Positions 1,192 to 18,693 of a DNA stretch of 32,000 nucleotides are shown here, piece after piece. The notes beneath the pieces were generated by a model. It did no database searches. It saw only the letters and a list, made by a program, of their open reading frames with translations, and was not told the DNA's origin. Position 1 is the stretch's first letter. Each line of letters starts with the position of its first letter. A program made the translations under genes and the position numbers. The DNA is from Sulfolobus acidocaldarius DSM 639 (lineage in GTDB: Archaea; Thermoproteota; Thermoprotei_A; Sulfolobales; Sulfolobaceae): positions 270,001 through 302,000 of the forward strand of contig NC_007181.1 in NCBI RefSeq assembly GCF_000012285.1, given 5' to 3'.

Positions 1192-1959
1192 TTAGAGATC
1201 GATTCTTTCGGGGTGAGTATACACATTAAAGCTATTCCCTCTGACAAAACCAACAAGTGTTGCACCTGCGTCCTCTGCAATTTCTATAGCTTTACTCGTT
1301 GGTGCTGAAATACCGCTTATAATCGGAATTCCTGCTTTTATTGCCTTACTTACAATTTCATAACCTATTCTACCACTAACCTGAAGTATACCTTCAGTGA
1401 AAGGAAGTCGCCTCTTGTGGATTAAACTTCCTATTATCTTATCAACAGCGTTATGTCTCCCTACGTCTTCATATATACTTATTAATTCTCCACTAAGTGT
1501 AAACAGAGCAGCTGCGTGTAAACCACCAGTAATATTAAATACTCCCTGATTACTCCTCAGTTTCTCAGGAAGGGAAATAATAACCTCATTACTGGTCTTT
1601 GCGTCAGATTTTAGTAATTCAATAGCATTAAGAAAGCCTCTACCACAGATTCCACAACTAGAGTTAATAACAAAATTTCTCGTCTCTACAAATTTACCAT
1701 TGGTTAGCCTTACATGTATTTCGTTATCAGATAGCATACTGATTTCTTCAACATCCCTTAAACTATTAATGTAATCCTCGTAATAGAGAAACCCTAACGT
1801 GAGCTCTAAGTCATTACCAGGAGTCCTCATTATTATGGCTAAATTTTTTTCGTTTACAAAAATTTGAAGGGGCTCCTCAACAGCCACAAAATCCTCGGAA
1901 CTGGCTCTGTAACCGTCCTTAACCTTACTGATCTTGACTTTCCTTATTTGCACTACCAA
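1192..1959 (-). CDS. fdhD: formate dehydrogenase accessory sulfurtransferase FdhD
   Basis: 255 aa with the family motifs SSCGICG and GRHNAVDKIIG. It is the last gene of the fdhA-DUF1641-fdhD operon and overlaps the DUF1641 gene by 35 nt. Confidence 0.85.
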   Translation of the reverse strand: MVVQIRKVKISKVKDGYRASSEDFVAVEEPLQIFVNEKNLAIIMRTPGNDLELTLGFLYYEDYINSLRDVEEISMLSDNEIHVRLTNGKFVETRNFVINSSCGICGRGFLNAIELLKSDAKTSNEVIISLPEKLRSNQGVFNITGGLHAAALFTLSGELISIYEDVGRHNAVDKIIGSLIHKRRLPFTEGILQVSGRIGYEIVSKAIKAGIPIISGISAPTSKAIEIAEDAGATLVGFVRGNSFNVYTHPERIDL

Positions 1960-2290
1960 TCGCCTTTAATAATTTCAACAACAAGTATAAGCCTCTCCTA
2001 ACATCAGGGTCATTAAGCTCTCTCACAATTTCGCTTAATTTTATGTCCTTTACCTCCTCCTTACCTGCAAGTATAGAGTAAATTTCATTTACATTCCTTA
2101 TGAGCATGGAATTCTGTTCAGCTAAGAATGTTAAGTTTTCATCAAATTTCATGAGGACGCCATTCAGAAACTGCAATATACCTGTTTTATGAAGAGCATT
2201 TATCAACTTTAGGAATTGCTCTAATGCCTCTCTGCTCTCAGTCAATTCCTCAATTAATCTGTCAAAGGTTTGAATTCCTCCCTCTTCCAT
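1925..2290 (-). CDS. DUF1641-family protein (formate dehydrogenase associated)
   Basis: 121 aa with a helical N-terminus (ALHKTGILQFLNGVL) and the C-terminal motif LNDPDVRRGLYLLLKLLKAIG typical of DUF1641. It lies between fdhA and fdhD and overlaps both. Confidence 0.7.
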   Translation of the reverse strand: MEEGGIQTFDRLIEELTESREALEQFLKLINALHKTGILQFLNGVLMKFDENLTFLAEQNSMLIRNVNEIYSILAGKEEVKDIKLSEIVRELNDPDVRRGLYLLLKLLKAIGSANKESQDQ

Positions 2291-5190
2291 TTTTCCTCCA
2301 CCTGTATCCCTATTTGTTTTTTCCTCTCTTTTGTATGATACCTCCAGTTGTATGTAGGTAATGGATTATCTGTTTTGCTCCCTTCTTGCAGCCTTTCTAT
2401 AATAACAGGTGTATCCTTATACCCTGGAGTTCCACTGCCCTTATCTATTATTGGGGCAGTTAAGATGTTTACTCCCTTAGAAGGGTCTGAAGCGTATAAT
2501 GGTATAAATATCTCATCACCCTGAACCCTATCTGTTACTAGTGCTCTAGCCCTAATCTCTCCACCAAACTTCGATTTTACCATTATGAGATCTCCCGTAT
2601 TGATAGAGTACTTCTGAGCTAATTCTTTAGAGACCTCCACAAAAGTTTCAGGTACTCTCCCTGTGAGCCCGGCTACCCTCCTCGTCATATTACCAACATG
2701 GAAGTGCTCTAACACTCTTCCGCTATTTAGGGTTATCTTGTGAATTTCGTCTCTCATTTCAACTGGCTCAATCTCTAAAGGATACATTATAGCTTTACCA
2801 TCTGGAGTCTCAAATTTTTCAGTGTAAAGCAGAGGTGTGTCTCTTTCTTCATAAACTGGCCACAGCAGACTATTGAAGCCCTCTAATTTAGCGTAAGTCA
2901 CTCCACTAAATATGGGACATAGTTTAGCCACTTCATCCATTATATCTGAGGGATGTTTATAATTCCAGTTTGCCCCCATAGCATTAGCTATCATCTGTAT
3001 TATTTCCCAATCTGCTTTTGCTTCTCCAATAGGCTCCATTGCCTTGTAGAACCTCTGTATTCTCCTTTCAGTGTTTACAAATGTTCCGTCCTTTTCCAGA
3101 TTGGAAGCAACAGGTAGGACAACGTCAGCTAACTTAGCAGTTTCTGTCATGAACATGTCTTGCACTACGACAAAGTCAGCCTCCTCTAATGCTTTTCTGG
3201 TCAGAGGAGTACCACAGTCCACCATCACAGTGTCCTCTCCTATAATGTACAACCCGTGTATTTTACCTTCAAGAACTCCTTCAATCATCTGAGGAATTTG
3301 AAGACCGGGTTTTTCATTAAGTTTAGCCTTCCAGTTCTCTTCGAATTTTTTAATTACTCCCTCTTCAAACTTCTGATATCCTGGGAAATAGTTCGGTAAG
3401 CAGCCGAAATCACTAACACCTTGAACATTGTTATGACCCCTCATTGGGTAAGCCCCTGTGCCTGGTCTGCCATAATTACCAGTTAACAGTAAAAGATTAG
3501 ATATCATAGTTGATGTGTCAGCTCCGTTTACGTGTTGGGTAATCCCCATTCCCCAAAGAACAACTACGTTCTTAGCGTTGTGTATAAGTTCAGCTAGCTT
3601 AATTATTTGCTCCTTCGGCACGCCCGTTACAGATTCAACATAATCCAAGTTGAAACCTTCAATAGACTCCTTGAACTTCTCAAACCCATTCACACGATTC
3701 CTTATGAATTCCTTGTCCTCCCATCCGTTATCCAAAATGTATTTTGCTACGCCTGCGAGTATGATTGCGTCATTTCCTGGTTTTGATTTAATGAATAAGT
3801 CAGCCCACTCAGCTATTTCATGCCTTCTCACATCGATTACAGCAATTTTAGCTCCTCTTATCTTCTTTGCCCTCTTTACTTTACTGCCTATGACAGGGTG
3901 ACTCTCTGTGGTGTTATGACCAATCACAACAATTAGGTCGGCACTCTCAATATCCCTTATGGTTCCAGAGTCTGCTCCAAAGCCCACTGTCCTCCATAAT
4001 CCAACAGTTGCAGGAGCTTGGCAATACCTAGCAGAGTTGTCCACATTATTAGTTCCTAACACAGCTCTTGCGAATTTTTGGGCTAGATAAGCCTCTTCAT
4101 TACTCATTTTGTCTGACGCGATGACGCCTATAGCATCTGGACCGTATTTTTCTTTTATTTCTTTAAATTTCCTCGAAATAAGTGAGATAGCTTCTTCCCA
4201 CGTAGCCTCCCTGAACTTATCTCCCTCCCTTATCAAGGGTTTGGTGAGTCTATCTGGACTATTTACGAAATCCCACCCAAACTTTCCTTTAACACATGTA
4301 AGTATTCCATTTGCAGGAGACTCCGGTTTTGGTTCTATTTTTAATATTTTTCTTCCCTTAGTCCACACTTCGAACGAACATCCAACACCGCAATAAGTAC
4401 AAACTGTCTTCGTCCTTTTTATCTGAGTTTCCCTAGCCTTAGACTCCAATTCACTGAAAGTCATGAGCAGAGAAAAGTTGTCCTCTGCTTTCCCAATAGC
4501 CTCTATAGCTTTTCTCTTCAGATCCTTGTTTATCCAGGTAAAGAACCCTGCTTCACCTAGCATGCTCTTCTCCATCAATGCATTCACTGGACATACTGTT
4601 ACACAAGTCCCACAGTTAACACAGGAGGAATTTCCTATGGGATTGCCATTATCCCAGACTACTCTAGGTGGGTTTAAATTCCAATCGATCCAGATTACTT
4701 CATTTACAGCAAAATCTTGGCAAGCCTCAACACACCTACCGCATAGAATACATTGTGAAGGGTCATAAGTATAAAAAGGACCAGTATCATCTAAAGCATA
4801 TCCCTTATCCACATACTTCTGGGAGTTTATATTTAGCTTAATTACTGCTTCATGAAGCTCACAATCTCCATTATTATTTTCACAAATAGTACAGTACAAC
4901 TTGTGATATCGAAGTATTCTACTGACTGCAGTCTTCCTAGCATTTAATGCTCTAGGAGAATTAACGTTAATTGACATCCCTTCTACTGCCTTAATTGCAC
5001 ATGATCTAACAAGTTTACCGTTAACTTCCACTATACACGTATCACAACTTTGTATAGGTGTTAGACCAGTGTTGTAACATACATGAGGTACATAGAACCC
5101 TTTTTCCATAAGAGCTAAAGCTAGGCTTAATTCTGTATTCAGTTCCACCTCTTTACCATCAACTTTAACCCTTACGGAACCCATATTCAA
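2254..5190 (-). CDS. fdhA: formate dehydrogenase alpha subunit (molybdopterin oxidoreductase with NuoG-like Fe-S N-terminus), Cys-type
   Basis: 978 aa. The N-terminus has a 2Fe-2S pattern (CYNTGLTPIQSCDTCIVEVNGKLVRSC) and an H-x3-C-x2-C-x5-C site (HKLYCTICENNNGDC). Two ferredoxin motifs follow (CILCGRCVEAC, CVNCGTCVTVCP), then the MopB cluster CTYCGVGCSF. The active-site region ARYCQAP has Cys and there is no in-frame TGA. Confidence 0.9.
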   Translation of the reverse strand: MNMGSVRVKVDGKEVELNTELSLALALMEKGFYVPHVCYNTGLTPIQSCDTCIVEVNGKLVRSCAIKAVEGMSINVNSPRALNARKTAVSRILRYHKLYCTICENNNGDCELHEAVIKLNINSQKYVDKGYALDDTGPFYTYDPSQCILCGRCVEACQDFAVNEVIWIDWNLNPPRVVWDNGNPIGNSSCVNCGTCVTVCPVNALMEKSMLGEAGFFTWINKDLKRKAIEAIGKAEDNFSLLMTFSELESKARETQIKRTKTVCTYCGVGCSFEVWTKGRKILKIEPKPESPANGILTCVKGKFGWDFVNSPDRLTKPLIREGDKFREATWEEAISLISRKFKEIKEKYGPDAIGVIASDKMSNEEAYLAQKFARAVLGTNNVDNSARYCQAPATVGLWRTVGFGADSGTIRDIESADLIVVIGHNTTESHPVIGSKVKRAKKIRGAKIAVIDVRRHEIAEWADLFIKSKPGNDAIILAGVAKYILDNGWEDKEFIRNRVNGFEKFKESIEGFNLDYVESVTGVPKEQIIKLAELIHNAKNVVVLWGMGITQHVNGADTSTMISNLLLLTGNYGRPGTGAYPMRGHNNVQGVSDFGCLPNYFPGYQKFEEGVIKKFEENWKAKLNEKPGLQIPQMIEGVLEGKIHGLYIIGEDTVMVDCGTPLTRKALEEADFVVVQDMFMTETAKLADVVLPVASNLEKDGTFVNTERRIQRFYKAMEPIGEAKADWEIIQMIANAMGANWNYKHPSDIMDEVAKLCPIFSGVTYAKLEGFNSLLWPVYEERDTPLLYTEKFETPDGKAIMYPLEIEPVEMRDEIHKITLNSGRVLEHFHVGNMTRRVAGLTGRVPETFVEVSKELAQKYSINTGDLIMVKSKFGGEIRARALVTDRVQGDEIFIPLYASDPSKGVNILTAPIIDKGSGTPGYKDTPVIIERLQEGSKTDNPLPTYNWRYHTKERKKQIGIQVEEKWKREEFKPLTD

Positions 5191-7459: not shown

Positions 7460-8311
7460 TTACAAGAGCAAATTTCTGTAGATTATATAAATTGCCACAA
7501 CTATCAGGACAACTCCAAATACTTTCCTAAGAGTGCTTCTTGGTGATTTTGACGCGAGTAGAGTACCTATATACCCACCGCCTACTCCGCCTGCCAAGAG
7601 AATTAGGGACAAGATATAGTCAATTTCACCATAAGATGCGTACGTCAATGCAGTTGAAAGCCCGAAGGTTCCTACAGAGATGAGTGATGTGCCAATAGCT
7701 GAAATGATACTCATAGAGGTACTAAAGAGTAATGCAGGAACTATAAGAAATCCCCCTCCTATACCTAGAAATCCAGAGGCTAGACCGACCAAAAAGCCTG
7801 TGTATATTATCCTAATGTTAATACGGTCTTTTGATTTTACCACACCAGTATCACCACTACCTTTTGTCTCATTTGATCCCTCCTTGCACTTGCTCTTAAT
7901 CATCCTTAAACCAATTAAAATCATCACTATCCCGAACATTATGAGAATAAGATTCCCTGTGGTGAGGTAACCGAAATACGCACCCAATATCGAGCCTATA
8001 ACACCTGGAATGGTAAATACGACTCCCTCGAAAACTTTAACATTCCCTTTCCTCCAGTGAATAAATGAATTAATGTATGCATTTAAACCCACTGCTAGTG
8101 CTGAGGTTCCTAAAACTAAGTGGGTTATGTTAGAATAGTTACCAAAGCTGGAAGAGTCATTACCTAAACCTACAAAGTATAATAATAGGGGAACTGCGAG
8201 TATTGACCCGCCCCCTCCTATAAGACCTAAAATAAGCCCAATAATGAAGCCAGAGACCACTACGAGGACATATTGTATGAGTGTTAATTCCACCTCAGTA
8301 TACGGAGTCAT
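7460..8311 (-). CDS. TauE/SafE (DUF81) family anion permease, putative sulfite exporter
   Basis: 283 aa polytopic membrane protein with duplicated Gly-rich motifs GGGGSILAVPLLLYF and GIGGGFLIVPALLF, typical of TauE/SafE. It lies directly downstream of hdrB2 on the same strand. Confidence 0.8.
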   Translation of the reverse strand: MTPYTEVELTLIQYVLVVVSGFIIGLILGLIGGGGSILAVPLLLYFVGLGNDSSSFGNYSNITHLVLGTSALAVGLNAYINSFIHWRKGNVKVFEGVVFTIPGVIGSILGAYFGYLTTGNLILIMFGIVMILIGLRMIKSKCKEGSNETKGSGDTGVVKSKDRINIRIIYTGFLVGLASGFLGIGGGFLIVPALLFSTSMSIISAIGTSLISVGTFGLSTALTYASYGEIDYILSLILLAGGVGGGYIGTLLASKSPRSTLRKVFGVVLIVVAIYIIYRNLLL

Positions 8312-8370: not shown

Positions 8371-9282
8371 TTACATGTATCTCTTTAACACTGACATAGG
8401 GTTAGTTATATTAGCTACTAATAGGGTTTCCTCAGGGCTATGACCAAAGGCAAAAGCTAGGAGTTGTGAAAAGTAGGCTAAAGGCATTTCTAAATCTTTT
8501 CCATACTTTTCAGCAATCTTTCTCATATTTGTCTCAATGGCTACATGACCCAATGGACAATCGGTAACTAAAACCTCTGCACCATTCCTTCTAGCCTCCT
8601 TTAATATTCTAGCCTCAAGGTGCATAGCCACCTCTACGTCGGAATATACATGTGGACCTCCACAACACATAGTCTTAGCTTCAAATGGAACAACTTCAGC
8701 GCCTATAGCCTTAAGTATCTCGTCCATAAAGAATGGTCTCTCCGGGTCGTCCTTCAGTGGAGCCATACCCGTGAGTAAGTATTGCTTGGGTCTCGAATAT
8801 AGGCATCCATAATATGGAGCAACCTTCAGTCCTGTCAATGGTCTCTTGACCTTCGCCTTGACTCCCTCTATTCCTACAGTATTATATACGTATTCAACTG
8901 CGTGAATTAACATAAGTTTAAGATCATACTTGACCGTACCCATCTTCTCTAAATAATTATTAGCCTTCTCTCTGACCTTAGGATATTTTGACATGTAGTA
9001 TTGAGCCCTTGATAGGGAGTAGTGACAGCCCGGACAGGCAGAAACTACTGCGTCTGCACCCATCTCTCTAGCTAAAGAGAGATTTCTAGCAGGTAATAAT
9101 AGACCAGCCATAGTGTTTACATTCTTTACCTCCAAAGCTCCACAACAATTGTAGTCCTCAATTCTGTCTAAAGGTATTCCTAGATCTTGTGCCACTAACT
9201 TAAGTGAAACCTCATATGTCTTTCCTAAACCGTCTAATGCACAACCTGGGTAAAAGGCTATTTTACCATATGGATTACTCAT
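8371..9282 (-). CDS. hdrB2: sulfur-oxidising heterodisulfide reductase-like subunit HdrB2
   Basis: 303 aa with two CCG-type Cys-rich domains (FYPGC...YNCCGA and YYGC...TMCCGGPH). An ATGA overlap (9279-9282) joins it to hdrC2. Confidence 0.9.
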
Positions 9283-11836: not shown

Positions 11837-13153
11837 TTACTTTTGCTGGGACTTATACCATTTAACTCTATCAGGCAGTGTCAGATAGAAGTCAATTTTT
11901 CTATGTTTTGGATATAGGTATTGGGTTTCTTCCTTTCCTTCCCTTAAATCGTGTAAGTACTGCAGGAACTTCTCTTTGTGGTCATCAACTGGTACACCTA
12001 TTTTCCTCAAAAATCCCTCCACGTCCGTTGCATGCCAATGTATCTGGGCAATAGTATAGGGATCAGCTCCCATAGCAAGAGCGACAAACTGCGCATCTGC
12101 TAATACTGGTAAATTATAATTGACTCCATGTGCCTTACCTACCCACTGACTCTTATCTAAAGTTGTCACACATCCTGTATCAGAGGTTACGAAGACATCT
12201 GCATGACCCTCCTCTACAGCAGGTATAACTTTCTTGAATAAAGCAAAGCTTCTGGTAAACTCCCTTTCAGTCAAAATATGTCTGAAACCAAATCCACAGC
12301 AATCCCACCACGTAGAATAATCTACTAATTTGGCACCTAGATTCTTTACTGTGCCTGAAGGAGCTGCAGGTCTTCTTCCCTGGTAAACTTCAGGGTCATA
12401 TATTGTATCCTCTGGTACTAACTTGTAGATATGGCATGGTGTGTGGACAGCAGCCTTGACTCCCTCTAGGTTATATTTCTTTTGCTGTGCAGCTTTCTTG
12501 CTCATAACATACATCCATTCTGAGTAGTGGACTACTTCCTCTGGTACAACTATATCCATGTCTAGTTTTCTCATTATTGGTCTCAGTTTCTCCCTTATTT
12601 CACTGTGTAGTATTATCATGTTCCTCATTTCCTTATAGTGCCCAAACGAGGTACCACAATGTATTAGAGGGAAATAGTCTGTTTCATAAGCCCTCCACAT
12701 ATTTCTAACATAAACACCTGCTAATGCGACAGGATTAGACGCACCAGATGCGTGATAGTTCCAACCTGTACATGAAGTCTGATGAGGTTCGTCTAAATAA
12801 TCAATCTCAAGTTTATTCATGATCCAAAAGACTGAGGTCGGGTAACCAGGGATATGACCACACTGACCACAGCTTTTATGATGCCATAACTTTGTTGTCG
12901 GAATCTTTTTAGGAAGACCATTTAAGGACTGATATTCTACAGGGTTATACATGGGTTTAACGTGATGGACTAGTATCTCACCCTTATCCTCCAGCTTATA
13001 TAACTCCTCCTTAACGTGCTGGAGACCATGAGGTGTACTGTACTTGTAAATTATCCTCTGATAGACATCCTCCCAATCCACCTGGTCAGCCATAGGAAAT
13101 GCTTCCTTTATAGCCTCGTCAAGCTTCTTCTCCTGCTCTTTATTCATACTCAT
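11837..13153 (-). CDS. hdrB1: heterodisulfide reductase-like subunit HdrB1
   Basis: 438 aa. It is Cys-rich, with CGQCGH and the CCG-type motif WWDCCGFGFRH. It is the first gene of the hdrB1-A-hyp-C2-B2 operon and has a palindromic TATA-like box about 24 nt upstream. Confidence 0.85.
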   Translation of the reverse strand: MSMNKEQEKKLDEAIKEAFPMADQVDWEDVYQRIIYKYSTPHGLQHVKEELYKLEDKGEILVHHVKPMYNPVEYQSLNGLPKKIPTTKLWHHKSCGQCGHIPGYPTSVFWIMNKLEIDYLDEPHQTSCTGWNYHASGASNPVALAGVYVRNMWRAYETDYFPLIHCGTSFGHYKEMRNMIILHSEIREKLRPIMRKLDMDIVVPEEVVHYSEWMYVMSKKAAQQKKYNLEGVKAAVHTPCHIYKLVPEDTIYDPEVYQGRRPAAPSGTVKNLGAKLVDYSTWWDCCGFGFRHILTEREFTRSFALFKKVIPAVEEGHADVFVTSDTGCVTTLDKSQWVGKAHGVNYNLPVLADAQFVALAMGADPYTIAQIHWHATDVEGFLRKIGVPVDDHKEKFLQYLHDLREGKEETQYLYPKHRKIDFYLTLPDRVKWYKSQQK

Positions 13154-13170
13154 ATTTGAGACACCTTTGT

Positions 13171-13185
13171 TATTTATAAAATATT
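13171..13185 (-). promoter_or_regulatory. TATA-like box for hdrB1-hdrA-hyp-hdrC2-hdrB2 operon
   Basis: The sequence tatttataaaatatt contains the palindromic tttataaa (13173-13180), centred about 24 nt upstream of the hdrB1 ATG (13153). The spacing fits a leaderless archaeal mRNA. Confidence 0.4.
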
Positions 13186-13642
13186 AATAAAAATATAAAA
13201 ACTTTTCCTAAAGCTATTTTGCCCAGAAACTTGACTCAATTGGAAAGCGCCCGTGTTTTTAGTAGCTATGGTAGTATTTTTGAAGTAAACTGAATAAAAT
13301 ACTTTCAATAAAATAGGTAATAATAATTAAATCATTAAGGTATTTCTCTGTGTAGTAAGTAATCACCGCTTTACCGCAACTTTTTAAGATAAAAAGAAAT
13401 AATCTAATTATTCACTAAACTTGTTAAACTTGCACAAATTGACTGGTAAACGTAAATTAGGTCTTAAATTAAATTAAAAAAGTATTACATTTTCAAAAAC
13501 AACATAAACTGTCTTTTTATTTTTTAAATTTCCTACAAGTAGATTCCAGAACCGTAAATGATATTAAGTTAATACGTACATTATAAAATTATTAAGCACA
13601 CTTTGTACAGCCTTTATAAAAAATTTATTAATCACAATTTAC

Positions 13643-13658
13643 CATATATATATAAAAG
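13643..13658 (+). promoter_or_regulatory. TATA-like box for tusA-like/SQR-like operon
   Basis: The sequence catatatatataaaag ends 12 nt before the GTG at 13670. The spacing is roughly, not perfectly, that expected for a leaderless transcript. Confidence 0.3.
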
Positions 13659-13669
13659 GTGACCCAAAG

Positions 13670-13903
13670 GTGAGCAGTCTGAGAATATACAAAGAACTAG
13701 ACTTAACCAGTTCCTCATGTGCAGGACCAATTGGTGAACTCTCAGGTGTGATAGATGAGCTTCAAGATGGTGAAGCTGTTAAAGTAATATTGGGAGATGA
13801 GGCGACAAAAAAAGACATAACATTATGGGCGAAGAGAAGGGGAGTTAAGATAGTAAAAGAAGAACAGGAAGGGAGTAAGCACATATTATTCATAACTAAA
13901 TGA
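13670..13903 (+). CDS. TusA-like sulfur carrier paralogue with variant active-site motif (CAGP instead of CPxP)
   Basis: 77 aa with a GTG start. It aligns along its length with the canonical TusA in this window (LDLTSSSCAGPIGEL vs LDARGMYCPGPVLET; DITLWAKRRG vs DIEAWARRTG). Confidence 0.6.
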   Translation: MSSLRIYKELDLTSSSCAGPIGELSGVIDELQDGEAVKVILGDEATKKDITLWAKRRGVKIVKEEQEGSKHILFITK

Positions 13904-13915
13904 GGTGATTATGGT

Positions 13916-15073
13916 TTGGCTAAAAGGATAATTGTAGCAGGAGGAAATATAGGAGGCACAATAATAGCAAATAGGCTAGCCCAAAAATTAGACCATGAAC
14001 TTCATAAAGGAGAAGTGGAAATTGTAGTTCTAAACAAGAACGACGATCATATTTACTACCCCGGACAATTGTTATTAGCCTATGGTCTTGAGACTCCACC
14101 AGAATTAATGAAAAAAGAAAGCGAGCTACTGGACCATAGAATTAAGTTTATACACGGTGAGAAAGGGACTATAACAAAATTTGACCCAGCGAACCACTCT
14201 GTAGTAACTGCAGATGGTGTTTCACACAGTTACGACTACTTAGTGATAACAACCGGAGTAGAGTACAGTTGGGATGAGATACCAGGCTATAGGGCTGGAT
14301 CAGTTAACTTTTATGAATATGAAGATGCCCTGAAGATGAGAGAAGCACTAAACAATTTCCAGGGAGGAACAATCGTAGTTAATACAGCAAGATTACCCCA
14401 CAGATGCCCTGTTGCACCCTTAGAGAACACATTAGTCCTTGATGATTACTTAAGAAAGAGGGGAATAAGGGACAAGACTAAAATTATTTACACATACCCA
14501 GTTCAGGGAGTGTTTGGAAGACCAATAACTAACAAATTCATGCTAAAGTTATTTGAAGAGAGAGGTATTGAAGTGCATTCACCATTCACTGTAACAAATG
14601 TAAACCCAACTGAGAAGATAATTGAGTCTCAAGAAGGAGGTAAGCTGAAGTACGATCTGCTAATTGCAATTCCACCAAATATGGGAGCAAAAGTCGTAGG
14701 AGATTCAGGATTGGGTGACAGGAGGAGATGGCTACCAACTGATAAGTTCACCCTGAGAATGAAAGACCATTCTAATGTATATGTAATGGGAGATGCTACC
14801 GATTTACCCGTATCTAAGGCAGGCTCCACTGCAGACTTTGAATCTTATGTCGTATCCCATAACATAGCGAACGACATTAAAGGTAATTTAGGTATGAAGC
14901 ACTACGGAGGAGATGTACTCTGTTATATAGCAACTGGAACTGATCAAGCAACCTACATTAGGTTTAGTTATACCATGAACGAGAGTCCTCCACCCCCATC
15001 CTACATCCACTGGTGGGGGAAGATAATGTACAATAAATTATACTGGACTGTAACAGCCAAGGCAGTGGTATAA
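13916..15073 (+). CDS. sulfide:quinone oxidoreductase-like FAD-dependent pyridine nucleotide-disulfide oxidoreductase
   Basis: 385 aa with a TTG start 7 nt after a perfect GAGGTGAT Shine-Dalgarno site. The N-terminal FAD fold is [15 protein letters not shown]. Cys residues sit in SQR-like contexts ([22 protein letters not shown]). Confidence 0.7.
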
Positions 15074-15074
15074 A

Positions 15075-15455
15075 ATGAAACTAGGGATAATAGTGGGTAC
15101 TAATGAGAGATCAAGGTTAACATATGCAGCAATGAACTCTGTAATATCCTCATCTATGGGAGACGAAGTATTCGTATTCTTGACAATGGATTCAGTAAGG
15201 GCTTTCACAAAAAACCCTGAAGTTAAAGACTCAGATGTTTCATCAAAAACAATGGTTGAAAAGAAAGATGAGGACTTTACAGGGCTCTTCAAAAAGGCAA
15301 AGAAGAGCGGAAAGGTGAAGATTTATGCTTGCTCTTACGCCAGCAAGCTGTTTAACTATAGTAAAGCAGATTACAATGACCTTGTAGACGAAATAGCGGG
15401 AATAACTACGTTCATGATGGATGTAGAAGGGGGACAAGTTATCTCAGTGTGGTGA
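15075..15455 (+). CDS. DsrE3-like DsrE/DsrF-family sulfurtransferase paralogue
   Basis: 126 aa and colinear with DsrE3A in this window (KLGIIVGTNE.. vs KLSIIVFSGT..; KIYACSYASKLF vs KVYACSTTMEFF; C-terminus DVEGGQVISVW vs RAEGGITLFI). The Cys is conserved. It starts 1 nt after the SQR-like stop. Confidence 0.65.
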   Translation: MKLGIIVGTNERSRLTYAAMNSVISSSMGDEVFVFLTMDSVRAFTKNPEVKDSDVSSKTMVEKKDEDFTGLFKKAKKSGKVKIYACSYASKLFNYSKADYNDLVDEIAGITTFMMDVEGGQVISVW

Positions 15456-15460
15456 AGGTA

Positions 15461-16381
15461 ATGCAAGACCTAAATCTAGATAAGATTTTTTCTAAATTAG
15501 ACCAAAAGAGAATTGATGCACTATCTGAATTGGTAGAACTGACACCAACACTAACTGAATTACTTAAGAAACTTGATGAGTTGAAAGAATCAGGAACATT
15601 GGACGCATTAATAAATTATGCGTATATAGGGAAAACAATGAAGGATATGCTAAACGATGATGCTCTTCAAAACCTCAGCAACACGGTCTCCAGTCTATTA
15701 GAGCTTACTAAGGTTCTGTCAAGACCTGATACATTCCATAATACTATGAGGTTAATGAACAATATAGACGCATTGGCTGATGTTACAAGTAAATTGAGGA
15801 CCATGAAAGAGGATGGAACACTAGATGTACTTATGAACACTGCCTACACCATTAGAACATTCAGAGACATGCTCAATGATGAAGCTCTAGCCAACATTTC
15901 AAGGTATACGTCCAACCTGTTAGAGATTTTGAGGGAAATGGATGATAACTCAGTAAGATCGTTGAAGAGCATATTAAGAAGGGCTAAGACCATAGACGGC
16001 TTAATGGTCAGATTAGAAGAACTTGAAAACTCAGGAGCATTAGATGTGTTATTAAACCTAGCCTATGCAGGGAAAACAATGAAGGATATGCTAAACGATG
16101 ATGCGTTAGCTGAGATAGGGAAATATCTCTCACAGTTCCTAGAGGCTTATCCAAGAGTTATGGGATTACTAAATAGTGTGACAGATGGAAACGGTCTCGT
16201 CTCGAGAATGATGAATGCAATGAAATCAGAGGACGTTAGAAAGGCTTTAGAATCTCCTCCCAAAGTGTCTATTAGTGGTTTGATTAAGCAGTTATCAGAC
16301 CCTGAGGTACAAGTAGGTCTTGGAGTATTATTCTCGGTAATTAAAGCGATAGGAAAAGAATTCTCAAGTCATAACAAGTAA
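15461..16381 (+). CDS. DUF1641-family protein with three tandem ~72-aa helical repeats
   Basis: The ATG at 15461 is preceded by GGTGA (15451-15455); the track ORF begins at a GTG at 15449. There are three repeats of the type L(K/E)ESGTLDALINYAYIGKTMKDMLNDDAL. The C-terminal DUF1641 motif is LSDPEVQVGLGVLFSVIKAIG. Confidence 0.7.
   Translation: MQDLNLDKIFSKLDQKRIDALSELVELTPTLTELLKKLDELKESGTLDALINYAYIGKTMKDMLNDDALQNLSNTVSSLLELTKVLSRPDTFHNTMRLMNNIDALADVTSKLRTMKEDGTLDVLMNTAYTIRTFRDMLNDEALANISRYTSNLLEILREMDDNSVRSLKSILRRAKTIDGLMVRLEELENSGALDVLLNLAYAGKTMKDMLNDDALAEIGKYLSQFLEAYPRVMGLLNSVTDGNGLVSRMMNAMKSEDVRKALESPPKVSISGLIKQLSDPEVQVGLGVLFSVIKAIGKEFSSHNK
15628..15663 (+). repeat. 36-nt perfect direct repeat, copy 1 (intragenic, in-frame)
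   Basis: The sequence agggaaaacaatgaaggatatgctaaacgatgatgc is identical to 16069-16104, which is 441 nt (147 codons) downstream. It encodes GKTMKDMLNDDA in repeat units 1 and 3 of the DUF1641 protein. Confidence 0.9.
16069..16104 (+). repeat. 36-nt perfect direct repeat, copy 2
   Basis: Identical to 15628-15663 by direct reading of the sequence. Confidence 0.9.
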
Positions 16382-16401
16382 TTTTTATTTTATTATTTTT
16401 T
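16382..16401 (+). terminator. T-rich archaeal terminator candidate after the DUF1641-repeat gene
   Basis: The sequence tttttattttattatttttt begins immediately after the TAA stop at 16381, in a convergent intergenic region. Confidence 0.35.
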
Positions 16402-16553
16402 AGTATCATTTTATCAGATATTAGATAAATGCCATGTAAATTTCTACTTCTTATCTCCTTATTCAGCTCTTTTAAACACAGTGAGGATTTGGAGAGATAA
16501 TCTCAGCACATGTGTAAAAATAATATAATGGGGTTCTAGTATATACAAAAAAT

Positions 16554-17405
16554 TTACAAATCTAGCCAGCTATCAGGTAGTTCGTCTTCGTTGAGCTCTC
16601 CTTTTTCCCATTTCTCCTTTAGTTCCTCTAACTGTTGCTTTCTCTCCTCGTATATATCCATAATCATGTCGTAAAGGTCCTTATCCACGTTCTTAAGAGA
16701 ATCAAGAACTCCAGATTCAATAAAGATTGTCATTAACTCTACCGCAGTCTGTAATGATGTATGCCAACCTACATCAGACCTTTGTAGTAAATCCACTGGT
16801 ATTGCCTTTCTATAGATATCCATGTTCTCAGACTCCTCTAGGGCTCTTGGCCCCCAGTCAGGGAAAGCCTCAGGTTGAATCATATTAGGTGTTACTTGAT
16901 TCCCTGTGGTTATTACTGTAAGCAAAACTCTTCTGTAAGGAGCAAGCACTTCCTTAGCTGATGGTAAAGCAAATTTTACTGCATATTCTCTCAGCAACAT
17001 TATCAAACCCGCAATTTCATTATTAAATGGGCATCTCATTGAGCACGTATAACACTGTACACAAGCCCAGACTTTCTTATTGGTGAATTCCCAAATCTTA
17101 TCGACAGAATCCCTCATCATATACTGAATCATTTCCCTTGGTCCAAAATCGTAAAACTTGGCTGCAGGACAGCCTGAGGTACATACTCCACAGTTTAAGC
17201 AACCCCTCAAATATTCATTAAATCTGAAATCGCTTTTCACAGCTTCCCAAAATCTAATTGCTGCTTCTCTCTCATCAGGTTTCAAATTGCTCATTAGATT
17301 CCTCTCTTCCTCAGCTACTGCTCCTTGTACCTCATATGACATATCCAAGTATCTAGGGTCGTCGGGTAAAGGCGGAGTTATAGTTTTAGCTGCCATCAAA
17401 TTCAC
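16554..17405 (-). CDS. hdrC1: heterodisulfide reductase-like subunit HdrC1 (2x[4Fe-4S])
   Basis: 283 aa from the GTG at 17405; an alternative ATG at 17396 gives 280 aa. Ferredoxin-type motifs are CLNCGVCTSGCP and CVQCYTCSMRCP. Confidence 0.85.
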   Translation of the reverse strand: MNLMAAKTITPPLPDDPRYLDMSYEVQGAVAEEERNLMSNLKPDEREAAIRFWEAVKSDFRFNEYLRGCLNCGVCTSGCPAAKFYDFGPREMIQYMMRDSVDKIWEFTNKKVWACVQCYTCSMRCPFNNEIAGLIMLLREYAVKFALPSAKEVLAPYRRVLLTVITTGNQVTPNMIQPEAFPDWGPRALEESENMDIYRKAIPVDLLQRSDVGWHTSLQTAVELMTIFIESGVLDSLKNVDKDLYDMIMDIYEERKQQLEELKEKWEKGELNEDELPDSWLDL

Positions 17406-17470: not shown

Positions 17471-17713
17471 TTATTTCATTCTCTTGATAAGTATTCTAGT
17501 TGCATCTCCTTGTTGCTGGATATCTAGGATTTGATGACCTGTCCTCCTTGCCCAAGCCTCAATATCAGGTTTTGCAGCTGGGTCTGTTGCTAATACTTCT
17601 AATACTTCACCGACTTGTATCTGCTTTATAGCCTTAGCTGTCTCTAGAACGGGTCCAGGGCAATACATTCCCCTTGCATCAAGGGTTTTTGATATTTTTG
17701 CTTCTTGAGTCAC
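17471..17713 (-). CDS. tusA: sulfur carrier protein TusA
   Basis: 80 aa with a GTG start preceded by GGTGA. It has the canonical motif LDARGMYCPGPVLET and follows dsrE3A after an 11-nt gap. Confidence 0.9.
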   Translation of the reverse strand: MTQEAKISKTLDARGMYCPGPVLETAKAIKQIQVGEVLEVLATDPAAKPDIEAWARRTGHQILDIQQQGDATRILIKRMK

Positions 17714-17724
17714 TTTCTCTCACC

Positions 17725-18156
17725 TTAGATAAATAATGTAATTCCACCCTCAGCCCTATCTAAAAAAGTTGCCGCACCTACCACATCATCAACAAATTCC
17801 GCTAAATCCTCCCTCTTTACGCCAAAGAACTCCATTGTAGTTGAGCATGCGTACACTTTAACTTCGCCAACTTCTTTAGCTTGCTGAACTAATTGATGCC
17901 ACATGGGATACTTCATCTCTTGCATTCTCTGCATCATTATAGGTCCCATTTGCTCATAGTTCTTGTCTATCTGTGGGGGTTGTTGGCTGTGAATACTCCT
18001 CTTGGTAATTGACTGTAAACCCCAGAAGGTGAAGAACAGGTTAACCTCATAACCACCTGCAGCTGCTGCAGAAGATAAGATTCCTACTGGCATGAGCTTG
18101 TCTATTGTTCCTGAGAACACTATTATAGATAGTTTTTTCTTCTTTTCTTCTCCCAT
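17725..18156 (-). CDS. dsrE3A: DsrE3A-type sulfurtransferase
   Basis: 143 aa of the DsrE/DsrF family. The conserved Cys lies in VKVYACSTTMEF. GGTGA sits 5 nt upstream of the ATG. The dsrE3A-tusA-hdrC1 order matches the Metallosphaera-type arrangement as I recall it. Confidence 0.8.
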   Translation of the reverse strand: MGEEKKKKLSIIVFSGTIDKLMPVGILSSAAAAGGYEVNLFFTFWGLQSITKRSIHSQQPPQIDKNYEQMGPIMMQRMQEMKYPMWHQLVQQAKEVGEVKVYACSTTMEFFGVKREDLAEFVDDVVGAATFLDRAEGGITLFI

Positions 18157-18291: not shown

Positions 18292-18693
18292 ATGGAACAG
18301 GCTCAATCTGAGTCTCAGGCTGAGGAACAGAAAAAGAAAATCCTGATAGTTGTTACTCACGGACCAGACGATATTGACAGAACATATGCACCCTTATTTA
18401 TGGCTTCAATATCCGCCTCAATGGAGTACGAAACTTCAGTGTTCTTTATGATAAAAGGACCAAAACTATTGGATAAGAAGTGGCAAGAAGAGGAGAGAAG
18501 AAAGGGAGGTAATCCATTCATTAGGTTCTTCGACATGGCAAAAGAAAATGGTGTTAAAATGTACGTATGCGTGCAAAGTCTAAAAGATATGTGCCATATG
18601 AATGAGAGTGACATAGTAGATGGAGTTGAAATAGTAGGAGGATCAACACTAATAGATTTAACAATGGATGCTGACAGATCTCTATTCTTCTGA
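18292..18693 (+). CDS. dsrE2: DsrE2-like (soluble DsrE2B-type) DsrE-family protein
   Basis: 133 aa of the DsrE/DsrF family ([12 protein letters not shown]...; Cys in [11 protein letters not shown]). It is divergent from dsrE3A-tusA-hdrC1. No transmembrane segment is evident. Confidence 0.7.

Follow-up and report, generated by a model that had tools for sequence, protein, structure and literature searches.

A type III-like sulfide:quinone oxidoreductase, two sulfur carriers and a predicted HMP scaffold are encoded by one operon within the hdr cluster of Sulfolobus acidocaldarius

Structures of quinone reductases built on a helical scaffold protein are available for three enzymes: a hydrogenase, a formate dehydrogenase and an NADH dehydrogenase. 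Their scaffolds, HucM, ForE and YjlC (also known as Ncp), belong to the DUF1641 family, which Pfam and the names of NCBI homologues now call HMP, for "helical membrane plugin". In these systems, a tetrameric tube scaffolds a soluble oxidoreductase, the C-terminal plug lies at the membrane, and quinone travels through the hydrophobic lumen, a function that has been demonstrated by others in all three. Both menaquinone binding and activity of the formate dehydrogenase depend on ForE, and the NADH dehydrogenase Ndh of Bacillus subtilis docks on YjlC through its own C-terminal helix (PMC13524794, PMC13433803). According to papers of 2025-2026, most HMP genes adjoin genes for sulfide:quinone oxidoreductase (SQR), which, by inference, is the most frequent partner and also the ancestral one, and the authors of the Ndh-YjlC studies infer that YjlC was recruited from an SQR-associated ancestor (PMC13524794, PMC13433803). 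An HMP paper discussing the SQR link cites Broc et al. 2025 as the source of the proposal. As far as gene context is concerned, the link between SQR and HMP was known before, and no experimental study of an SQR-HMP complex was found in the literature searched. Here, we report a computational analysis of saci_0330 to saci_0333, a four-gene operon of the archaeon Sulfolobus acidocaldarius DSM 639 that encodes a TusA-family protein, an SQR, a DsrE protein and an HMP protein, and lies between hdrB1 and hdrC1 in a stretch of 32,000 nucleotides (NC_007181.1, positions 270,001 to 302,000, forward strand; hereafter, the window).

Two previously described gene clusters come close to this operon. In Metallosphaera cuprina, the TusA-SQR-DsrE4 cluster (Mcup_1722-1724; Liu et al. 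2014, PMC4175335) has the same gene content and order as saci_0330-0332, and in Methylacidiphilum fumariolicum SolV, the type III SQR-TusA-DsrE operon (PMC10205796) is alike in gene content. Unlike the operon of S. acidocaldarius, both clusters lie outside the hdr cluster. The searched text of the two papers, where the clusters are given as TusA, SQR and DsrE, does not mention a DUF1641/HMP gene. A Metallosphaera locus contains genes for TusA (79 amino acids), SQR (384), DsrE (125) and HMP (300) in the same order as in S. acidocaldarius. The module is thus less novel than it appeared in an earlier note, made from the letters of the window alone, which did not recognize it and considered the role of DUF1641 beside flavoprotein oxidoreductases unknown: accounts of TusA-SQR-DsrE4 date from 2014, of the type III SQR-TusA-DsrE operon from 2023 and of SQR-HMP adjacency from 2025-2026, and the role of the domain is now established for HucM, ForE and YjlC/Ncp. 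The operon is an uncharacterized member of described kinds, namely, type III SQR with TusA/DsrE4, and HMP-associated quinone reductases. We report here the family identities of its four products, their conserved cysteines and the conserved gene neighborhood.

The flavoprotein saci_0331 matches the Pyr_redox_2 and FCSD_central families of Pfam, and its best matches among PDB sequences are human SQOR (E-value 1e-30), flavocytochrome c sulfide dehydrogenase (FCSD; 2e-22) and the A. ambivalens SQR (9e-22). In the alignment with human SQOR, its two cysteines, Cys164 and Cys336, fall in the regions of the catalytic cysteines; Cys164 is found in the SQR-type context P-x-(K/R)-C-x-x-A-P, and both residues are kept in an alignment of 18 sequences and in all 83 locus proteins compared. 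The catalytic pair of type III SQR is numbered Cys159/Cys339 in the literature. The AlphaFold2 model of saci_0331 has a mean predicted local distance difference test (pLDDT) score of 93, and Foldseek aligns it with human SQOR at a template modeling (TM) score of 0.89-0.90, with Aquifex SQR at 0.87, with FCSD at 0.82 and with NADH dehydrogenases of type II (NDH-2) at 0.75-0.77. An SQR-like flavoprotein with two cysteines had been anticipated in the earlier note, and this proved correct, with SQOR as the best PDB match, an invariant cysteine pair and greater closeness to SQOR than to NDH-2.

Conceivably, the flavoprotein is not a sulfide oxidase at all but an NAD(P)H-dependent NDH-2, or an enzyme that reduces persulfide or polysulfide with carrier-bound sulfur as its substrate. 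The two kinds of enzyme belong to the same superfamily, NDH-2, including YjlD, is a weak PDB sequence match to saci_0331 (E-value 6e-7), and the best-studied flavoprotein-HMP complex contains an NDH-2. All top sequence and structure matches are, however, to SQR or FCSD rather than to NADH dehydrogenases that lack the cysteine pair, a grouping that the earlier note had named as fatal to its reading; the SQR cysteine pair is invariant, with Cys164 in its characteristic context; and NDH-2-HMP pairs are confined to Bacillales in a published survey. We consider this alternative highly improbable, and the sequence, the structure model and the cysteine pair together identify saci_0331 as an SQR, not an NDH-2. 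A reverse, sulfur-reducing role was rejected on thermodynamic grounds, since the quinone has a much higher potential than the S0/H2S couple.

Among the NCBIfam models, just one matches saci_0331 strongly, NF049943, "type III SQR, selenoprotein subtype", which covers the full length of the protein (E-value 4e-103) with a score of 345 bits, under the 525 cut-off of that exception model. The gene context of saci_0331 matches that of the Methylacidiphilum type III SQR operon. The designation "type III" rests on the NCBIfam match and gene context, and we refer to saci_0331 as type III-like. It shares the fold and the catalytic cysteine pair with the characterized SQRs (human SQOR, type II; A. ambivalens, type V; Aquifex and A. 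ferrooxidans, type I; Caldivirga, type III) but differs from them in its short C-terminus, in having a putative HMP partner, and in that its presumed acceptors are dedicated proteins from the same operon; furthermore, a third conserved cysteine for covalent FAD attachment was not found in the family alignment. Human SQOR hands its sulfane sulfur to an acceptor thiol and releases no polysulfide. In the family of saci_0331, the chain extends only about 50 residues past the second cysteine and ends in a conserved helix, HWWxKLxYNKxYW, found in every member compared. In the model of saci_0331, this is a single C-terminal helix (residues 363-380), amphipathic and rich in aromatic residues, and the tail carries a net charge of +2. 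Two recent reviews list S. acidocaldarius as the sole Sulfolobales species without an SQR homologue, and one of them used the type V enzyme of A. ambivalens as the query for genome comparison. The operon corrects this statement: S. acidocaldarius has a type III-like SQR that these surveys missed and that is transcribed at a high level, with a published logCPM (log counts per million) of 12.2 for saci_0331, close to that of hdrB1.

The protein encoded by the last gene, saci_0333, matches PF07849 (DUF1641) in its C-terminal domain (E-value 1e-15, 57.6 bits versus a cut-off of 21) and, by this criterion, is a member of the HMP scaffold family. In a search of the PDB, a profile of 17 homologues (saci_0333 and 16 others) gave the formate dehydrogenase scaffold ForE1 (8rqz, E-value 1.2e-3) and HucM (7uus_Q, E-value 0.015) as top hits; YjlC was not detected by this profile. 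Matches of saci_0333 to the MurU and short-chain dehydrogenase models of NCBIfam lie far under the cut-off, have no matching stretch and were set aside as spurious. Upstream of the HMP domain, there are three tandem helical repeats with the core motif SG(A/T)LD...Y..K...DMLNDDA, a period of 73-74 amino acids and 32-40% identity over 72 amino acids. The repetition is visible in the DNA as well, as three 79-nucleotide copies that are 222 and 219 nucleotides apart, the first and third being 81% identical, a similarity that would favor recombination between repeats. HucM residues 33-187 align with the last repeat and the plug, so that one repeat with the plug looks like a complete minimal HMP protein. 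The net charges of the repeats are -3, +1 and -5, so that two of the three are acidic, and that of the C-terminal segment (residues 256-310, the plug) is +2. Together with the +2 tail of the SQR, this gives the polarity described for YjlC/Ndh. A hydrophobic 19-residue window typical of a transmembrane helix is not present in any of the four operon proteins.

Among the solved systems, Ndh-YjlC (PMC13524794, PMC13433803) is the closest parallel. There, too, a two-Rossmann-domain flavoprotein quinone reductase devoid of transmembrane helices is encoded next to a DUF1641/HMP gene, a C-terminal helix is present in the enzyme, and acidic helical segments are combined with a basic plug in the scaffold. 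In contrast to Ndh, saci_0331 is an SQR with a cysteine pair rather than an NADH oxidase, and it is known from sequence, its complex with the scaffold being putative; the S. acidocaldarius operon additionally encodes two sulfur carriers; the archaeal host uses caldariellaquinone; and saci_0333, with 310 amino acids, has three tandem repeats of the tube type. The ForCE formate dehydrogenase and the Huc hydrogenase have a homologous C-terminal HMP domain, and in ForCE, the HMP subunit is needed for the link to quinone; their catalytic partners, however, are a molybdoenzyme and a [NiFe] hydrogenase, they have no sulfur relay, and ForE1 (186 amino acids) and HucM (188) are much shorter than saci_0333. 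We know of no report of tandem tube-type repeats in solved HMP proteins.

The two small proteins of the operon each have a single cysteine, whereas the SQR has two and the HMP protein none. The TusA-family protein saci_0330 (PF01206; E-value 1e-15, 57.8 bits) has its cysteine, Cys17, within the motif C-A-G-P. Its identity to the Metallosphaera TusA encoded ahead of SQR is 57%, versus 36% to saci_0335, the hdr-linked TusA of the window. Among 67 SQR-adjacent TusA proteins of the surveyed loci, the motif reads CPGP in 49, CAGP in 10, CSGP in 3 and CTGP in 2, which makes Cys-x-G-P in 64, the other 3 not matching the pattern; C-A-G-P in saci_0330, present also in the Metallosphaera orthologue, thus reads as a lineage variant. 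The DsrE protein saci_0332 (PF02635) has its cysteine, Cys86, in the motif YACS, and this alignment column is Cys in 55 of 55 in-module DsrE proteins. Its identity is 55% to the Metallosphaera DsrE encoded after SQR versus 29% to the DsrE at 17725-18156, and BLAST returned no match between it and the C-X7-C DsrE at 18292-18693. A Pfam hit of saci_0332 to ZSWIM4-8_C falls far under the cut-off and was discarded as spurious. The earlier note had taken the two proteins for second copies of the hdr-linked pair and labeled the second of them DsrE3-like; neither description is borne out. By pairwise identity, saci_0330 and saci_0332 have their orthologues in a distinct set of proteins, one linked to SQR. 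What defines the DsrE4 group is a gene position downstream of SQR, with Mcup_1724 as the prototype (Liu et al. 2014, PMC4175335), and saci_0332, which starts 1 nucleotide past the SQR stop codon, fits DsrE4 and not DsrE3 by gene position and pairwise identities. Iterated hidden Markov models (HMMs), one for each of the three DsrE types, ended up recovering the same proteins, so that bacterial DsrE subgroups were not separable.

The same definitions bear on the other dsrE genes of the window. The product of 18292-18693 (plus strand) carries a Cys93-X7-Cys101 motif, and its gene precedes a dihydrolipoamide-dehydrogenase-like gene, as in the definition of DsrE3A by Liu et al. 2014; the gene at 17725-18156 (minus strand), whose product has one cysteine, lies beside tusA-hdrC1, which is the position of DsrE2B in the same scheme. 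The label dsrE3A, which the earlier note gave to a gene within 17471-18156, was therefore probably swapped with 18292-18693.

To place the operon in a broader context, one genome per species was scanned for related loci, and HMMs built from the window proteins were searched against all open reading frames (ORFs) of these loci. The set of at least 80 loci is a sample among the matches listed, not a census, and all counts below refer to it, with loci that have enough flanking sequence as denominators. It covers Sulfolobaceae, Marsarchaeota, Thermoplasmata, Thaumarchaeota, Geoglobus, Bacillota, Nitrospirota, Alpha-, Beta- and Gammaproteobacteria, Gemmatimonadota, Chloroflexota and Actinomycetes. 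The co-occurrence of SQR-like, DsrE and DUF1641 genes across archaea and bacteria, which the earlier note had put forward for survey, was evident: HMP lies directly downstream of SQR in 67 of 73 loci, TusA directly upstream of SQR in 61 of 75, DsrE is found within the module in 46 of 68, and 40 of 68 have the complete four-gene set. The usual order is TusA-SQR-DsrE-HMP in archaea and DsrE-TusA-SQR-HMP in bacteria.

These findings suggest a cytoplasmic sulfide-oxidizing unit. H2S would attack the redox center formed by Cys164 and Cys336 of saci_0331, and two electrons would pass through FAD to caldariellaquinone. Because all four proteins are devoid of transmembrane helices and the SQR chain closes with a short, strongly conserved helix, we propose that electron transfer involves an HMP tube. 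Like HucM, ForE and YjlC/Ncp, saci_0333 would form a tetrameric tube with its C-terminal plug in contact with the membrane; the hydrophobic lumen would carry quinone and quinol, and the acidic helical repeats would dock the C-terminal helix of the SQR. The sulfane sulfur left on the SQR would be taken up by the cysteine of DsrE4, TusA or both as a protein persulfide, rather than being released as polysulfide, and in S. acidocaldarius, the persulfide would go to the sHdr system encoded around the operon, at a locus that includes a gene for a TauE/SafE protein as well. We regard this whole chain, from type III SQR and HMP through the TusA-like and DsrE4 carriers to sHdr, as somewhat probable. 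Our confidence is higher for an SQR on an HMP scaffold, and lower for delivery to sHdr, than for the chain as a whole; the idea that the operon is a feeder of sHdr is plausible. The operon thus offers a candidate SQR-HMP complex, encoded by one transcript, in a genetically tractable archaeon, and the co-encoded TusA and DsrE4 open to test the fate of the SQR sulfane sulfur and the route of sulfur to sHdr.

Several observations weigh against this chain. The first FAD-binding motif of saci_0331 (residues 9-14; 13940-13957) reads GGNIGG instead of GxGxxG, a G11N substitution (GGNIGG or GGNIAG) that is common to S. tengchongensis, Sulfurisphaera and A. brierleyi, the family consensus being otherwise GGGIGG. 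The AlphaFold2 monomer model of saci_0333 is all-helical but unusable (pLDDT 36, predicted TM score 0.21). To judge by the titles of the papers on it, the one biochemically studied archaeal type III SQR, that of Caldivirga, binds membranes by itself. HMP-less members of the SQR family exist, so that HMP is not obligatory for the SQR fold; among the matches listed, they come only from Chloroflexota (four loci) and one Nitrososphaeria metagenome-assembled genome. In 10 other Sulfolobaceae loci (S. tengchongensis, two S. islandicus strains, Sulfurisphaera, Metallosphaera, Aramenus, A. brierleyi and three more), the module is away from hdr, and a published survey has proposed a role for DsrE4 in detoxification rather than in sHdr feeding. 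Finally, the response of the S. acidocaldarius genes to elemental sulfur (S0), given below, was not flagged as significant by its authors.

Some of these points are what would be expected if the SQR bound the membrane monotopically by its own C-terminal helix and HMP were employed otherwise, for example, in holding polysulfide or S8, in regulation or in stabilization. The conserved helix is amphipathic and aromatic-rich, in keeping with membrane binding of the kind ascribed to the Caldivirga enzyme, and HMP diverges fast, at 47-56% identity where the partner SQRs share 83-87%, and changes freely in length. The helix itself is nevertheless ambiguous, since the element by which Ndh docks on YjlC is the same helix that monotopic enzymes use for the membrane. 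Moreover, HMP is a quinone conduit and enzyme scaffold in all three solved systems, and in the survey, it follows SQR in more than nine-tenths of the loci. The HMP-less loci keep TusA upstream of SQR, and the Nitrososphaeria locus keeps DsrE as well, but in their SQRs, the C-terminal helix lacks the HWW/HWF-K motif that is present in all HMP-linked members. That the altered motif tracks the absence of HMP is suggestive, in two lineages only. On balance, we consider a self-anchored SQR with HMP in another role distinctly unlikely, and a scaffolded SQR remains our preferred reading.

The position of the operon relative to the hdr genes bears on the last step of the proposed chain. The standard order in the literature is hdrC1B1A-hyp-hdrC2B2, and in four other archaeal loci of our set, the homologues of hdrC and hdrB lie side by side; by both comparisons, the hdr cluster is truly split in S. 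acidocaldarius, as the earlier note had claimed from the separation of hdrC1 from hdrB1. Among the 11 Sulfolobaceae loci sampled, this is the only one in which the module lies inside the hdr cluster. Nevertheless, in 19 of the 80 loci, including those of Marsarchaeota, Thermoprotei, Thermoplasmata and many Alphaproteobacteria, hdrB and hdrC are encoded within 10 kb of the module, and in many Alphaproteobacteria, the shdr operon lies directly upstream of it on the same strand. Thus, the module is normally free-standing, and a looser linkage with shdr is recurrent. Frequent linkage of dsrE4 to the type I shdr clusters of archaea has also been noted in a published survey.

Expression data point in a similar direction. 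In the published transcriptome table of S. acidocaldarius with versus without S0, the operon and hdr genes all rise in the same direction, 1.4- to 4.3-fold, although the authors flagged none of the listed genes as significant: saci_0330 4.3-fold (P 0.003), saci_0331 1.8-fold (P 0.045), saci_0332 1.4-fold (P 0.38), saci_0333 1.5-fold (P 0.15), hdrA (saci_0328) 2.5-fold (P 0.001), hdrB1 (saci_0329) 1.5-fold (P 0.058) and hdrC1 (saci_0334) 1.6-fold (P 0.046). TusA-SQR-DsrE operons elsewhere are also sulfide- or sulfur-responsive. In A. brierleyi, an SQR paralogue encoded beside DUF1641 and "SirA" (TusA) was 3.2-fold up on S0 (P 7e-6, flagged significant), and "sqr-alt", "sirA" and "dsrE" are named among the sulfur-responsive genes of that paper; in Methylacidiphilum, the type III SQR-TusA-DsrE operon was 1.7-fold up with H2S (PMC10205796). 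The earlier note held that absence of the operon from other hdr loci, together with lack of co-expression with hdr genes, would count against it; the recurrent linkage and the parallel direction of the transcripts show neither.

It is also conceivable that the operon is self-contained and serves sulfide and sulfane detoxification, with the SQR removing H2S, DsrE4 and TusA merely sequestering sulfane sulfur, and nothing going to sHdr; the position within hdr would then be a meaningless rearrangement. This possibility gains from the free-standing modules of the other Sulfolobaceae, from the type III SQR of Methylacidiphilum, which has been read as an S0-producing detoxification enzyme (PMC10205796), and from S. 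acidocaldarius itself, which does not grow by sulfur oxidation, yet the saci_0330 product is abundant and saci_0331 transcripts are high in heterotrophic culture. A meaningless rearrangement, however, sits poorly with a shdr linkage that recurs in distant lineages, in many cases with the module directly downstream of shdr and on its strand, and with the published linkage of dsrE4 to archaeal shdr genes; furthermore, sulfane sulfur that is sequestered must still end up somewhere, and no sulfane-oxidizing system other than sHdr is encoded nearby. We therefore place pure detoxification on the unlikely side and favor transfer of the persulfide to sHdr. The TauE/SafE family gene at 7460-8311 (minus strand), annotated as a sulfite exporter (PF01925, E-value 2e-48), lies directly downstream of hdrB2 (8371-9282), a position that fits sulfite as the product of the sHdr pathway.

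The HMP proteins encoded beside SQR differ in the number of tube-type repeats, from 1 to 5 across homologues. Those with 2-5 repeats are almost all archaeal and fall into length classes of about 228, 300, 374 and 446 amino acids, corresponding to 2, 3, 4 and 5 copies of the 73-amino acid repeat, and most bacterial SQR-linked HMP proteins have one detectable copy in about 173 amino acids. Two S. islandicus strains that share the locus and have identical neighbors encode HMP proteins of 446 (L087, 4001-5341) and 302 amino acids (L088, 4001-4909), so that repeat number is polymorphic within a species; most S. islandicus strains have a 374-amino acid protein. No earlier report of variation in HMP repeat number was found. 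One might speculate that extra repeats add docking rings for SQR. The SQR-linked archaeal HMP would then be a tube of adjustable length, in which each 73-amino acid module forms one ring, and a tetramer docks several rings of SQR, possibly 12 SQR molecules in the case of the triple repeat; gain or loss of repeats would tune sulfide-oxidizing capacity per membrane contact, and together with DsrE4 and TusA, the whole would be a soluble assembly that turns sulfide into persulfide and feeds sHdr, in a species credited with no SQR in reviews. We offer this extended picture as an unlikely possibility.

The coordinates of the operon and of related features are collected in Table 1. The four plus-strand genes between hdrB1 and hdrC1, their non-ATG starts (GTG, TTG) and their tight spacing were all found as the earlier note had described them, with ORFs at the same coordinates and all four Pfam families above threshold; the gaps are 12 nucleotides, 1 nucleotide and a 7-nucleotide overlap, and Shine-Dalgarno sites precede saci_0330 (AGGTGA) and the start of saci_0331 at 13916 (GAGGTGA). 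If saci_0333 starts from the ATG at 15461, a 5-nucleotide gap replaces the overlap; public annotation and homologue alignment favor this ATG as the likely start. Others have reported on the basis of RNA sequencing (RNA-seq) that saci_0330-0333 are one operon with a transcript leader, as the note had also supposed, and that the leader of saci_0330 contains a 6-nucleotide Shine-Dalgarno motif; in that study, saci_0330 was picked as encoding an abundant protein, and three of the four operon products were listed as of unknown function. Locus tags follow the coordinates of the published transcriptome table, in which Saci_0329-Saci_0336 equal window coordinates plus 270000.

Table 1. Coordinates of the operon, its flanking genes and signals, and a second HMP locus in the window
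Feature	Position	Strand	Details
TusA-family gene saci_0330	13670-13903	+	GTG start, 77 aa
SQR gene saci_0331	13916-15073	+	TTG start, 385 aa
DsrE gene saci_0332	15075-15455	+	ATG start, 126 aa
HMP/DUF1641 gene saci_0333	15449-16381	+	longest ORF, GTG start, 310 aa
Three tandem ~73-aa helical repeats of saci_0333	15548..16162	+	aa 34-91, 109-167, 181-238
C-terminal HMP/DUF1641 domain of saci_0333	16241..16357	+	aa 265-303
Predicted promoter/leader	13614..13662	+	TATA-like TTTATAAAAAAT ~13614-13625; Shine-Dalgarno AGGTGA 13657-13662, before GTG
T-rich tract, putative archaeal terminator	16382..16405	+	after saci_0333 stop; sequence reading
hdrB1 (saci_0329), left flank	11837-13153	-	ORF, Pfam and published gene table
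hdrC1 (saci_0334), right flank	16554-17405	-	convergent with module; ORF, Pfam and published gene table
FdsA/ForC-like molybdopterin formate dehydrogenase	2254-5190	-	978 aa
DUF1641 protein	1925-2290	-	121 aa; PF07849 E 1e-13; PDB ForE1 E 5e-5
FdhD	1192-1959	-	after DUF1641 gene 1925-2290

The TATA-like element TTTATAAAAAAT may be part of the saci_0330 promoter, and the T-rich tract is a likely terminator. Beyond one flank of the operon lie hdrA, hyp, hdrC2, hdrB2 and the TauE/SafE family gene, and beyond the opposite flank tusA, the two dsrE genes, the dihydrolipoamide-dehydrogenase-like gene and lipoate-related genes. All 24 contigs examined that encode an identical SQR show the same arrangement as the window. 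The spacer between hdrB1 and the operon (13154-13669; 516 bp) is divergent, very AT-rich, and has no ORF of more than 44 amino acids and no Rfam match; because the split leaves hdrB1 without hdrC1 upstream, this spacer must house the promoters of both units. An Rfam scan of 13000-16700 gave zero matches. A scan for sigma-70 promoters and intrinsic terminators was discarded, with hits below those in shuffled sequence and models unsuited to an archaeon.

A 19-nucleotide imperfect direct repeat flanks the operon, with copies at 13615-13633 (TATAAAAAATTTATTAATC) and 16544-16562 (TACAAAAAATTTACAAATC) that are 84% identical; the second overlaps the end of hdrC1. The repeat was not used as evidence of insertion since, in this AT-rich setting, it is probably a chance occurrence, although it could be a trace of rearrangement.

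A second HMP system is encoded in the window on the minus strand (1192-5190). With a ForC-like formate dehydrogenase next to a DUF1641 protein, it mirrors the ForCE pair of B. subtilis.

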